The notes below the pieces were generated by a model. The model was given only the letters and a program-made list of their open reading frames with translations, searched no databases and had not been told where the DNA came from. A stretch of 24,535 nt of DNA, taken from contig JBHLMI010000033.1 of assembly GCA_048938295.1 (NCBI GenBank), forward strand, positions 1-24,535. The letters are read 5' to 3'. Origin of the DNA: Promethearchaeota archaeon (lineage in GTDB: Archaea > Asgardarchaeota > Hermodarchaeia > Hermodarchaeales > Hermodarchaeaceae). Positions 22,281-24,026 of the stretch are shown in pieces. Numbering within the stretch: position 1 is the first letter of the stretch; every line of letters starts with the position of its first letter. The position numbers were made by a program, and so were the translations under genes.

Positions 22281-24026
22281 ATGACACGAATCAAACTCAT
22301 GCCACTTACTCTATTGGCCTTTCTCCTCATCATGTTCGCTAGCCCGTTTATACTCACACAACTTCCTACAACAGCTGGCATGTCAAACAGTACTGCTCTT
22401 TCGCATCGGTCGAGTCCTATGAATTATGATTTCCGTATCCTCAACGAAACCGTGCAGGTCCTCCCCCAAATTGATGCTTCAGCGATTATCAATTATTCCA
22501 TCACCTTTGAAAACTATGGCACCGATTTCGACTACATCGATATCGGCTTGCCGAATTCCTATTATGTGCTTTCCAGTTTCCGCGCCTATTGGTCTCTCAA
22601 CAATGCACCCTATGTTGAACTGAGCGTCGCGACATCGGAGGCAGTTGACATCGGCATCGAAATCTTCATCCCACCCGCTCTCCGACCCGGAAACGGGGAA
22701 AACGGGACAATCATTGCTTGGGGCAACCAACAGCGCATGGTCTATCTTGACACCGATCCTGCAACTCCTGGATATGTTGGGTACGAATTTGTTCCAACCT
22801 GGTTCGGGTCCAGCTATAACCGTGGGACCGATTACCTCGGATGCCACCTTCACTTCCCCAACGGGTTCAACAATGGTACCCTCGCTAAATACCACTACAC
22901 CGCACCCACAACCCATTACTGGACAAACACTAACCTCGTCTACCTGTGGGAATATACTAACCTCGCCAACTACCAAGGACTTCCCCACGGCATCAGCTTC
23001 CCCTATGATGAATCCTACATCACCACTTACTTCACCACAGGAGGCGGTATCGATTGGGGCAACATTTTCGAAGAATACTTCGATATCATCATATTTGGCG
23101 TCATCGCCATTATCATCTTCGGTGCCTGCTGTCTCAGCATTACCCGAAGCGTCCGAGCAGGGGGTACCGCTGGTGGCCTCGTCAAACGCGGCTATCTACC
23201 CCCCGCCGTGAAAGTCGAAGCGTTGGGAGTTCGTCGTGGCCTCACGGTGGTAGAAGCGGCGGTGCTCAACGAAGTTCCGCTCAACCGCGTGTTCACCATG
23301 ATCGTCTTCGGCCTCCTCAAAAAGGAGCTTATCACCATCCAACGCGAAGGGAAAGCCAAACCCACCTTTCACACCAACCAGGCCACCATCGCCAACGCGG
23401 CGAGTAGCCAGGGCCGCTTCCACTATTATGAGCGCCTCTTCATCAAAGCCATCACCCCCCAAGGCAACCTTGACAAACCCGCGGTCCGCACCATGCTCAA
23501 CACCCTCATCAAAACCACGGCCCGCAAACTCGAAGGCTACTCCCGCACCGACACCAAAGCCTTCTACACCCGCATGATCGACCAAGCCTGGCGCCAAATC
23601 GGCCAAGCCACCACCCCCGACGCCCAAGTCACTGCCATCAATGACTACGCCGAATGGCTCCTCCTCACCCCCGACTACGACCACCGCATCAAACCCTACC
23701 ACCACTACTACGTCCCCGGCTGGTACTGGTGGTGGATCTGGGCCAGCCACCCCCGCCCCCACACCCTCACCCCCACCATCCCCGCCCCCACTATCCGCCC
23801 CACCACCGCCATCACCCTCACCGACTTCGCCAACGCCACCGTCACCGGCACCCAACACTTCGCCAACAACGTCGTCACCGGCTTCCAAAACCTCGCCAAC
23901 CAAATCGCCACCGCCTTCCGCCCCCCACCCCCACCACCCCCCCGCAGCAGCTTCAGCGGCCGCAGCTGCGCGTGCGCTTGCGCCTGCGTATCTTGTGCGT
24001 GTGCATGTGCCGGAGGAGGTCGTTAA
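22281..24026 (+). CDS. Membrane protein of DUF2207-like architecture with Pro-rich linker and Cys-Ala repeat tail
   Basis: Signal/anchor helix, aromatic beta-rich domain with N-glycosylation sequons (NST, NET, NYS, NGT x2), TM at ~270-290, GLTVVEAAVL motif, WYWWWIW, P7, SCACACACVSCACACAGGGR. Family call is from architecture only. Confidence 0.8.
   Translation: MTRIKLMPLTLLAFLLIMFASPFILTQLPTTAGMSNSTALSHRSSPMNYDFRILNETVQVLPQIDASAIINYSITFENYGTDFDYIDIGLPNSYYVLSSFRAYWSLNNAPYVELSVATSEAVDIGIEIFIPPALRPGNGENGTIIAWGNQQRMVYLDTDPATPGYVGYEFVPTWFGSSYNRGTDYLGCHLHFPNGFNNGTLAKYHYTAPTTHYWTNTNLVYLWEYTNLANYQGLPHGISFPYDESYITTYFTTGGGIDWGNIFEEYFDIIIFGVIAIIIFGACCLSITRSVRAGGTAGGLVKRGYLPPAVKVEALGVRRGLTVVEAAVLNEVPLNRVFTMIVFGLLKKELITIQREGKAKPTFHTNQATIANAASSQGRFHYYERLFIKAITPQGNLDKPAVRTMLNTLIKTTARKLEGYSRTDTKAFYTRMIDQAWRQIGQATTPDAQVTAINDYAEWLLLTPDYDHRIKPYHHYYVPGWYWWWIWASHPRPHTLTPTIPAPTIRPTTAITLTDFANATVTGTQHFANNVVTGFQNLANQIATAFRPPPPPPPRSSFSGRSCACACACVSCACACAGGGR

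Follow-up and report, generated by a model that had tools for sequence, protein, structure and literature searches.

The steep rise of C-ending codons along the gene at positions 22281–24026 of the window (the whole 24,535-nucleotide stretch of Promethearchaeota DNA analysed here) belongs to a local, bipolar strand-composition feature centred at the 3' end of that gene, of which it forms one arm. Up to a switch point, C is abundant on the sense strand, whereas the intergenic DNA beyond it and the following same-strand gene are rich in G and T. About 25–30 such switches occur in the genome, some of them within genes. Because this local two-armed bias recurs at so many sites, several of which carry inteins or LAGLIDADG genes, we tentatively interpret it as what may quite possibly be the footprint of DNA breaks that recur, and are repaired, at specific sites.

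The compositional gradient and its surroundings

The gene showing the gradient codes for a protein of 581 aa with 22 homologs, which are named Promethearchaeota, Hodarchaeota or Ranarchaeia; it has no family match in Pfam or NCBIfam. Its C-terminal tail is invariant (CACACAC[V/A]SCACACAGGGR). The features of the locus are listed in Table 1.

Table 1. Features of the window around the switch point
Feature	Position	Strand	Basis
Two small same-strand genes upstream (DUF7559-like; 121-aa), outer part of the arm	21419..22264	+	Pfam-labelled synteny in relatives
Gradient-bearing gene, 581-aa membrane protein, Asgard-specific family	22281..24026	+	ORF and translation, homolog alignment
Domain order of the 581-aa protein: signal peptide or TM segment, extracellular domain, TM helix, cytoplasmic domain, C-terminal tail			
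C-rich, G-poor arm (left arm of the bipolar skew)	22281..23965	+	C3 about 30% rising to 93% per 30 codons; peak 23640–23965
Assembly-graph break zone within the C-rich peak	23520..23770	.	Contig ends, depth fall
Last 20 codons (Cys-Ala tail and GGGR), C bias ended	23966..24026	+	Third positions, last block: C1, G1, A4, T6
Intergenic spacer, skew sign flips	24027..24146	.	GC skew +0.26 (C20, G34, T36, A30)
Tandem paralog, 5' part, ends at contig end; G/T-rich right arm	24147..24535	+	Translation, composition

The original prediction had drawn attention to the gradient by hand counts, all of which were reproduced. Third positions comprise 17 C and 12 G at 22281–22460; 43 C, 5 G, 10 A and 2 T at 23460–23639, where all ten Lys, Gln and Glu codons end in A; and 53 C, 0 G, 6 A and 1 T at 23760–23939. 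Bases 23761–23940 consist of 104 C, 18 G, 39 A and 19 T. Over the whole ORF, C climbs from 28% to 88% of third positions while G declines to 0 (C3 per decile: 0.28, 0.45, 0.36, 0.59, 0.63, 0.43, 0.64, 0.74, 0.88, 0.66). The correlation of C3 with position (r = 0.293) corresponds to z = 7.1 against plain shuffles, and to z = 8.4 when third bases were shuffled within amino acids; the observed r was reached by none of the 20,000 shuffles of either kind. Amino-acid content is therefore not the explanation, as had been claimed from the outset. When all ORFs with 300 codons or more in the genome (2.52 Mb) were ranked, 988 in total, this ORF came first both for the difference in C3 between last and first third (+0.37) and for the richest 60-codon window (56 of 60 C). 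Fourfold sites of codons 361–562 are composed of C 0.908, A 0.028, G 0.04 and T 0.03, and GC content amounts to 0.656 at 23501–24000, as compared to 0.458 genome-wide.

The C bias stops sharply at about 23965, some 60 nt ahead of the stop codon, and the cumulative GC skew has its minimum at 23954. The last 20 codons are mixed: Cys is encoded by TGC four times and then by TGT three times, and the Ala, Gly and Arg codons vary. Upstream, the DUF7559-like gene and the gene of the 121-aa protein already show moderate C3 (0.38 and 0.31, with G3 of 0.11 and 0.17, respectively). The product of the tandem paralog shares 61% identity with the 581-aa protein over residues 41–130, and its C3/G3 values per 30 codons are 17/33, 17/47, 53/20 and 23/37.

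Syntenic orthologs of at least eight relatives, with amino-acid identities of 65–89%, have the same C3 profile; those of L003, L004, L005, L007, G001, G003 and G004 are full-length on single contigs. Nucleotide identity to relatives is 0.87–0.94 in the arm versus 0.6–0.8 in the 5' half, and synonymous-site identity 0.9–1.0 versus 0.35–0.6, a difference that C3 of about 90% in both sequences likewise predicts. A recent transfer of the 3' part was rejected, since no relative's arm is more nearly identical than the bias itself predicts. Worn extra copies of the 3' tail of the gene were found neither in the genome nor in seven related loci.

Skew switches throughout the genome

Whichever strand is read 5' to 3', the switches share one layout: a C-rich, G-poor stretch of about 0.3–2 kb before the point and G- and T-rich DNA after it, often with a compositionally neutral core between the two arms. 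The upward jump of the skew is sharp and the downward return blunter. The peaks are local, extending over about 2 kb per side and fading in about 2–3 kb, without a long-range shift; skew is back to baseline 3–8 kb away from the switch points. In the most skewed segments G is avoided at every codon position, as exemplified by a G1 of 0.195 in C1:966–2549. The codon set of the arm, i.e., C-ending codons plus AAA, CAA and GAA, is that of 34 other C3-rich genes. The C3-rich genes include those of actin, gelsolin, [NiFe] hydrogenase, PFOR, SecY, RadA, Spt5 and small GTPases.

The switches are sharp and take no account of gene borders. Two porB paralogs, 36% identical, change from C-ending to G/T-ending codons at the same aligned motif, NTGxQRSGATP; the H+-PPase gene switches in the GPIxDNAGG region, and both the SecY gene and gene 22281–24026 switch about 20 codons short of the stop codon. 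A shared sequence motif was not found among 26 switch points, and this motif comparison brought no origin feature to light. Of the genes whose C3 is 0.45 or higher, 40% are located no more than 1.5 kb from the end of a contig, as compared to 11% of all genes (odds ratio 5.9, p = 5e-6). Fungal genes are said to have opposite GC skews at their 5' and 3' ends, as described by McLean and Tirosh in 2011. The Asgard switches resemble these in that the sign of the synonymous-site skew changes inside genes, with an abrupt reset, but they are confined to specific loci; a general gradient along genes or transcription units is absent from the genome.

The original prediction had placed the bias on the DNA strand, with which upstream neighbouring genes and long skew domains agree. 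Genes with a coding GC3 skew below -0.5 have upstream opposite-strand neighbours with a skew of +0.09, versus a baseline of -0.118 (shift +0.21, p = 8e-4), and upstream same-strand neighbours with a skew of -0.29 (p = 1e-5); downstream neighbours are at baseline. Intergenic DNA in long skew domains has the sign of its domain, as in C18 (-0.17; 10 of 11 segments negative), where it is both C- and A-rich (AT skew +0.26), in C31 (+0.20; 7 of 7 segments positive), and in the right arm of L005 (+0.35 over 1878 nt). Unannotated DNA up to 1 kb away from the 26 switch points, when pooled, conforms less well to a strand-borne bias, since its skew is weak, -0.08/+0.03 before and after the point, versus -0.50/+0.52 at third positions.

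Two further candidates were discarded. G-quadruplex motifs on the template strand, considered as a mark of the peaks, are not general at them; the genome contains 40 such motifs, versus 19–34 after local shuffling, and two are located in gene 22281–24026. GC-biased gene conversion does not account for the bias, as one strand gains C and the opposite one G, so that the rise in GC is not symmetric.

Association with inteins and LAGLIDADG genes

The exteins of PolB, MCM, PolD and RNR have a C3-rich 5' flank and a G/T3-rich 3' flank, and the change occurs at the splice junctions (in this set, with the junction marked by a slash, ..VDFA/CLSEDTEIL, ..THN/SYGVLG, ..LHN/TVSIAKAG and ..TGN/CDGDEDS). 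The Pfam Intein_splicing match extends up to 1409 in PolB and up to 389 in MCM. The C-rich tract of PolD continues into the intein itself for about 300 codons. The pattern is weak or missing in the intein flanks at C61, C20 and C47:44201, and the G-rich arm is absent at C59. When 307 genes of at least 500 codons were searched for the order of skewed windows, a C-rich window followed by a G-rich one was observed in three of the nine LAGLIDADG-bearing genes versus two of the 298 others (p = 2e-4), and the opposite order in none of the 307.

In five of eight relatives (L003, L004, L005, L007 and G003) a convergent LAGLIDADG_3 gene is located 30–1200 nt 3' of the ortholog; the genome's own copy of this gene is found at C1:966–2549. 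Where this gene lies beside the ortholog, its LAGLIDADG-coding end, which adjoins the ortholog, is compositionally neutral, and the far N-terminal 330 codons, on the minus strand, have a C3 of 60–83%, so that the layout of arm, neutral core and arm is reproduced. As the LAGLIDADG gene is syntenic and has diverged like its neighbours (40–56% identity), its product may, judging from these sequence comparisons, be a domesticated regulator rather than an active homing enzyme. The downstream content of the locus is variable: the paralog in the window, the LAGLIDADG gene in the five relatives, and another gene in G004. This, together with a sequencing depth that is halved past 23737 in two runs, indicates presence/absence variation of the insert among lineages or strains. 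Within the window there is no endonuclease gene at the site, which is followed by the paralog and, 0.5 kb on, by the end of the contig, and at several other switches (the two porB genes and the PPase gene) none lies nearby.

A possible footprint of break repair

If the two-armed bias is the footprint of break repair, the DNA would be cut at the switch points, repeatedly and site-specifically, by LAGLIDADG homing endonucleases of the intein-borne as well as the free-standing type. On each flank of such a double-strand break, one strand would be resected and then resynthesised. Enrichment of the repair-synthesised strand in G, through misinsertion of G, and of T opposite G, would let the template drift to C and A; in the left flank, this template would be the sense strand of gene 22281–24026. 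An inserted element, newly copied on both strands, would remain neutral, and repeated cycles of homing and repair, with co-conversion of the flanks between lineages, would render the arms extreme and alike across the genus. That the polymerase favours G when it synthesises the repair strand is assumed. Damage of the kind known from resected 3' tails would be opposite in sign to the observed bias, and so would the strand-coordinated damage clusters on resected tails of yeast. Moreover, C of up to 91% at fourfold sites demands very many repair events, or additional selection. The more specific proposition that recurrent cutting by homing endonucleases leaves a readable two-armed scar, in which a C-rich arm on the 5' side and a G/T-rich one on the 3' side enclose a neutral core, is held more loosely, as a possibility.

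Well-known cases of homing and double-strand break repair are intein and group I intron homing, and the mutagenesis that accompanies gene conversion and break-induced replication in yeast. Co-conversion tracts and repair-associated mutagenesis at homing-endonuclease and double-strand break sites have been reviewed (e.g., PMC3943268, PMC3192709). The switches resemble such co-conversion in the fixed site in or beside a conserved gene, the decay of the effect in both directions within a distance of hundreds of bases up to a few kb, the central position of a neutral insert, the LAGLIDADG genes or inteins at or beside several of the sites, and the variable presence of the insert among relatives. 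A standing bipolar skew of synonymous sites, C-rich 5' and G/T-rich 3', was however not found described in this literature. Among the papers searched, none links homing endonucleases, inteins or co-conversion with GC skew, and searches on GC skew or codon usage of Asgard archaea retrieved nothing relevant.

Local strand asymmetries are usually read as marks of replication or transcription. The present one, a two-armed bias a few kb wide that crosses gene borders and coincides with intein splice junctions and LAGLIDADG genes, fits neither. If the scar reading is true, active or past sites of homing or gene-end swapping could be mapped from sequence alone, and about 25–30 core genes of this Asgard genus, among them those of actin, gelsolin, hydrogenase, PFOR, SecY, RadA, small GTPases and the 581-aa protein, would be chronic targets. 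The scar would then show in vivo which strand-specific errors archaeal break-repair synthesis is prone to, and would serve as a sequence-only finder of hot spots for homing and recombination and of anchors of flexible arrays in uncultured archaea. It would also account for the fact that metagenome assemblies of the genus break at the same genes.

Alternative explanations

Mosaic ancestry alone, in which the arms were imported by recombination from donors of a different strand composition at conserved motifs or gene ends next to flexible islands, appears unlikely. It would be in keeping with the sharp switches, which coincide with those motifs that are most conserved and hence most open to crossover, with strain-variable junctions and a depth that is halved inside the peak, with the different downstream gene content of the relatives, and with the higher nucleotide identity of the arm. 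The latter, however, is expected anyway from about 90% C3 in both sequences. We know of no donor of such composition, the same arm is present in all of at least eight orthologs, and the order is always C-rich to G-rich and never reversed, which random import does not predict.

The original prediction had ascribed the gradient to a strand-asymmetric mutation process, namely deamination of A and C on a minus strand that is single-stranded during strand displacement. The part of this reading that holds is a positional bias at the level of the nucleic acid rather than of codon function: C-ending codons are independent of residue conservation, and highly expressed genes are unbiased. The proposed T-to-C and G-to-A signature is likewise present at twofold sites, where C/(C+T) is 0.63 and A/(A+G) 0.81 in C-strand genes versus 0.41 and 0.66 in typical genes, and the C- and A-richness of C18 intergenic DNA agrees with it. 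The mechanism itself, in the form of strand displacement or origin-like initiation 3' of the gene with effects graded by exposure, is quite improbable, since A makes up only 3% of fourfold sites of codons 361–562, where C amounts to 91%, and damage of resected tails would have the wrong sign. Over all C-strand genes, fourfold A is also depleted (0.21, versus 0.28 in typical genes) and fourfold C raised (0.49 versus 0.26), and GC content locally rises to 0.66. In vertebrate mitochondria, the gradient follows the time spent single-stranded and A is raised at fourfold sites, too. The Asgard arms share with it the loss of G and T from the sense strand at synonymous sites, the grading by position and the twofold T-to-C and G-to-A changes, but they differ in that fourfold A is not enriched and in that the bias is local (about 2 kb per side), two-armed, repeated about 25–30 times per 2.5-Mb chromosome and sometimes intragenic. 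Similar gradients in other genes of the genome, and a bias common to the orthologs, had been named beforehand as arguments against the deamination reading, and both were observed.

The polarity of the skew, from negative to positive, is that expected of diverging forks or outward synthesis, and corresponds to the upward jumps at bacterial oriC and in the N-domains of human origins, whose independence of gene orientation the switches appear to share. A replichore-type skew exists in the genome, but it is only about 0.1, whereas the switches have amplitudes of 0.5–0.9 within a few kb. In place of a replication-scale gradient there are local bipolar peaks, which flank intein and LAGLIDADG sites and whose effect is gone within about 2–3 kb. 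A replication origin was rejected because the skew is at baseline 3–8 kb off, several of the switches are intragenic (in porB, PPase, PolB and PolD genes), and the points have no motif in common.

Selection on mRNA or translation for C-ending, G-free codons, be it through G34/U34 decoding, unstructured or R-loop-averse transcripts, or resistance to nucleases, has little more than a slight chance of being the cause. As in translational codon bias, the preferred set is consistent and recurs in the 34 other C3-rich genes, whose products are plausibly abundant; the effect at third positions far exceeds that in nearby unannotated DNA, and C exceeds A at fourfold sites. Translational selection was indeed our first reading, as the C3-rich genes seemed to code for abundant proteins. 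It was abandoned, and classical codon optimisation does not apply, because the genes of EF-1alpha (C3 0.27, rank 787 of 2261), EF-2 (0.19), thermosomes (0.23–0.25) and ribosomal proteins (0.16–0.25 in the L2/L3/L4 region, L2 0.25) are unbiased, and because residue conservation is unrelated to C-ending codons: Akashi tests of five orthologs yielded Mantel-Haenszel odds ratios of 0.72–0.96 (all p > 0.26), i.e., no enrichment at conserved residues. Furthermore, single mRNAs flip to G/T-ending codons in porB, PPase, PolD and RNR, the bias extends to opposite-strand neighbours and, in the long skew domains checked, to intergenic DNA, and in linkers of the 581-aa family that are free of constraint the alignment reveals amino acids shifted to Pro, Thr and His. 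The tRNA genes detected by ARAGORN in the draft genome number only 15, too few for judging codon-anticodon matching. Where "eukaryotic signature" genes of Asgard archaea (actin, gelsolin, small GTPases) show an extreme codon bias, this should not be taken as a sign of high expression or foreign origin.

Independent contigs from two runs stop at 23549, with short alternative pieces next, and the depth drops in the downstream piece 23737–24529, in one run to 14 after 35 and in the second to 9.8 after 18.8 (run-level evidence consists of Logan contigs; stretches devoid of contig cover in runs X3 and X4 were not counted). The ortholog contigs of G006, G010, G012 and G014 break as well, at residues 487–531. 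An artefact of assembly or binning, i.e., a chimeric contig in which sequences from two organisms or strains meet within the gene, would match this fragmentation of the contig graph at 23520–23770, the lower depth downstream, the position of the gene 0.5 kb from the contig end and the breaks in relatives at the same place, but it is most improbable, as the independent contigs of both runs reproduce the window (with 4–5 differences over 20500–23549, at most one in the linking pieces and 0–7 in 23737–24529), the ORF is intact, 11 homologs that come from other samples show residue-by-residue conservation of its C-terminal half, and the same profile recurs in the seven complete single-contig orthologs. 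Chimeric assembly, which the original prediction had listed among its possible refutations, is thus not supported, since the syntenic orthologs of at least eight relatives have the same bias.

An antisense ORF of 235 aa at 23196–23903 was rejected as a gene, as the protein conserved in the homolog alignment is that of the plus frame; the ORF is open because NNC codons read as GNN on the opposite strand.

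The gradient of C-ending codons

The draft genome G000 comprises 2.52 Mb in 66 contigs with 45.8% GC, and the window spans one of these contigs, C52, in full. Across the deciles of the gene for a 581-aa protein (see table), the frequency of C at third codon positions (C3) climbs from 0.28 to 0.88. All counts behind the original prediction were reproduced, both by recounting and by reading codons off the sequence, and the observation is confirmed as extreme: no other ORF among the 988 long ones has a steeper gradient or a richer peak window (C in 56 of 60 codons). Since the trend persists when third bases are shuffled within each amino acid (z = 8.4), amino-acid content is not the cause. 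The C bias ends about 60 nt short of the stop codon. Relative to the C-rich arm, i.e., the skewed flank, the sign is reversed in the spacer after the gene, which has a GC skew of +0.26, and over codons 1–60 of the adjacent paralog (C3 17%, G3 33–47%).

Far upstream of the steep arm, G3 exceeds C3 in minus-strand genes at window positions 6011–8736, with a coding skew between +0.19 and +0.44, so that the contig's plus strand is slightly enriched in C there regardless of gene orientation. Long antisense ORFs in the window and in locus L003 of a relative (G3 of up to 0.77 in relatives) owe their open frames solely to NNC codons, which become GNN or NNG on the opposite strand; gene callers choosing by length could pick them in such regions.

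Coordinates of genes and ORFs (C, contigs of G000; L, loci of relatives)
Feature	Location	Strand	Remark
581-aa protein gene	window 22281–24026	+	ORF translation
Paralog of 581-aa protein gene	window, starts 24147		truncated by contig end
Antisense ORF, 235 aa	window 23196–23903	−
Antisense ORF	L003 6643–6969
Radical SAM/SPASM gene	L009 5912–7237
Radical SAM/SPASM gene	L008 6659–7984
PolB	C53:17140–22161		two inteins
PolD DP2	C47:28499–33574		one intein
Ribonucleotide reductase	C50:65494–69624		one LAGLIDADG and one HNH intein
MCM	C59:256–5187		three Intein_splicing stretches
MCM, second intein-bearing gene	C35:3–1970
H+-PPase	C14:8393–10708	−
porB	C2:179807–180784
porB	C47:22096–23001
Large ORF; G000 copy of LAGLIDADG_3 gene	C1:966–2549
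Large ORF	C37:365–2272
Large ORF	C18:10040–11332

Strand component and switch points in the genome

The coding skew of adjacent genes (GC skew at third positions) is correlated at +0.37 for same-strand and −0.28 for opposite-strand pairs. When anchor genes were picked solely by their own skew (< −0.5), their upstream opposite-strand neighbours averaged +0.09, as compared to a baseline of −0.118 (p = 8e-4), and their upstream same-strand neighbours −0.29, while downstream neighbours were at baseline, indicating that the bias accumulates toward the anchor's 3' end, where it is reset. In long skew domains, intergenic DNA has the sign of its domain (−0.17 in C18, 10 of 11 segments negative; +0.20 in C31, 7 of 7 positive), and right arms in loci L004 and L005 of relatives reach +0.21 and +0.35 in intergenic DNA; non-ORF DNA within 1 kb of switch points, where C-rich, G-poor sequence gives way 5' to 3' to G/T-rich sequence, is only weakly skewed (pooled, n = 26). 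A replichore-type skew of about 0.1 is present as a separate feature, and no general skew gradient along genes or transcription units was found.

Upward skew jumps (negative to positive) exceeding 0.77 number 25, versus three downward ones; they are larger as well as more frequent. The meta-profile decays within about 2–3 kb, without a long-range shift. Most switches mark the 3' end of a C3-rich gene, in many cases one of a convergent pair, and some are intragenic and only a few codons wide. At fourfold sites the C strand (C 0.49, A 0.21, G 0.09, T 0.21) gains C at the cost of every other base, and on the opposite strand it is G that increases (0.33); at twofold sites the changes follow a transition pattern. 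SecY switches about 20 codons ahead of its stop, and the H+-PPase gene, with no endonuclease near its locus, flips sharply from C3-rich to G/T3-rich just before GMLSHTGNNVAMDSYGPIADNAGG, its most conserved motif. Two porB paralogs (36% identical) switch at one aligned motif, NTGxQRSGATP. These paralogs, called ancient, exchange C-ending for G/T-ending codons no more than a few codons away from the same TPP-motif position; in the C2 copy, the switch coincides with the point at which the contig-scale skew, about −0.15 across 180 kb, turns positive.

The three most strand-skewed 300-nt regions of G000 lie within the N-terminal parts of the large ORFs listed in the table, whose C-terminal parts are compositionally neutral. 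One encodes an HTH and LAGLIDADG protein; the other two lack a clear family, one of them being weakly similar to it at the N-terminus.

Inteins and LAGLIDADG genes

LAGLIDADG inteins occur in PolB, PolD DP2, two MCM genes and ribonucleotide reductase. In PolB, PolD, ribonucleotide reductase and one MCM, C3 is high in the extein on the 5' side of the intein (up to 76–84%), the sequence on its 3' side is G/T3-rich (G3 up to 76%) and the intein is mostly neutral, with the composition changing at the splice junctions, at positions matching the ends of Pfam Intein_splicing. There are exceptions: some inteins have weak arms or none, and the C-rich tract of PolD reaches about 300 codons into the intein, stopping between its two LAGLIDADG motifs. 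Of the 307 genes with 500 or more codons, 3 of the 9 LAGLIDADG-bearing ones show a C-rich window and then a G-rich one, compared with 2 of the remaining 298 (p = 2e-4); the opposite succession was seen in none of the 307.

In 5 of 8 relatives (L003, L004, L005, L007, G003), a LAGLIDADG_3 gene faces the ortholog of the 581-aa gene in convergent orientation, a short distance beyond its 3' end. Its endonuclease-coding end adjoining that gene is neutral and its distal N-terminal 330 codons, on the minus strand, have 60–83% C3, so that the layout is again C-rich arm, neutral core and G-rich arm; the G000 copy is arranged likewise with a small-GTPase gene. The whole pattern is a bipolar synonymous-site skew centred on intein/LAGLIDADG sites and gene-end junctions, of which a literature search yielded no description.

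Possible origin of the arms

The arms may be the footprint of repeated site-specific break repair, a reading which we hold tentatively. Resection outward from a fixed break site would give a sharp centre and arms decaying with distance, and an insert newly copied on both strands would be neutral in composition; independence from gene orientation, the association with endonucleases and the variable junctions would be covered too. The observed sign would require resynthesis to enrich the new strand in G, driving the template strand toward C.

The junctions are variable. At 23520–23770 the contig graph breaks up in two runs, in which depth halves in the piece downstream, though its composition is partly normal; co-existing strains hence differ from roughly there on. 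Assemblies of relatives break within this gene (residues 487–531), and C3-rich genes are over-represented at contig ends (OR 5.9, p = 5e-6). No additional copies of the gene's 3' tail turned up in the genome or in seven related loci. Mosaic import alone is an unlikely explanation of the arms.

The original prediction invoked deamination of a single-stranded minus strand, as in mitochondrial strand displacement. It is partly supported in kind, as a strand-asymmetric process at the DNA level, but neither in mechanism nor in scale, and as the source of the arms this model is rather improbable. Plain deamination does not predict the 91% C and 3% A at fourfold sites in the peak of the gene; deamination of exposed 3' tails would give the opposite sign, and that of nascent or outward-displaced strands the right sign, but no loss of A.

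Selection on mRNA or its translation is about equally improbable. Apart from this gene, 34 genes reach a C3 of at least 0.45 and share its codon set, and their identities at first raised the suspicion of expression selection; they include actin, gelsolin, [NiFe] hydrogenase, PFOR, SecY, RadA, Spt5, FKBP and small GTPases. Classical codon selection was rejected because EF-1alpha (C3 0.27, rank 787 of 2261), EF-2 (0.19), the thermosomes (0.23 and 0.25) and the L2/L3/L4 region (0.16–0.25) are ordinary, C-ending in the gene and four orthologs is set by position only, independently of residue conservation, the most skewed segments avoid G at every codon position, and unconstrained linkers are enriched in Pro, Thr and His. 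Selection might boost the effect on sense strands.

An artefact such as chimeric assembly is very improbable, the window sequence being reproduced by independently assembled contigs from two public runs. Complete orthologs from other samples (65–89% protein identity), in the conserved order topoisomerase IB, OMP decarboxylase, DUF7559, small gene and 581-aa gene, share the C3 profile, which is absent from the distant relatives L008 and L009 with their AT-rich genomes. At positions 23207, 23216 and 23240 the window has C, as opposed to T in contigs from each of the four public runs, which may be a strain difference or a choice of MAG consensus.

The 581-aa protein

Judged by eye, the protein consists of a signal peptide or TM segment, an extracellular domain, a TM helix, a cytoplasmic domain and a Cys-Ala tail; it has no family match in Pfam or NCBIfam, and its homologs are labelled Promethearchaeota, Hodarchaeota or Ranarchaeia, which identifies the source as an Asgard archaeon. 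The plus-frame protein is conserved across an alignment of 12 family members, with an invariant C-terminal CACACAC[V/A]SCACACAGGGR (window 23967–24026) that is retained even in L008 and L009, at 37–43% identity. The radical SAM/SPASM gene immediately 3' of the gene in L009, and nearby in L008, is a hint that a maturase may act on the Cys-rich tail.
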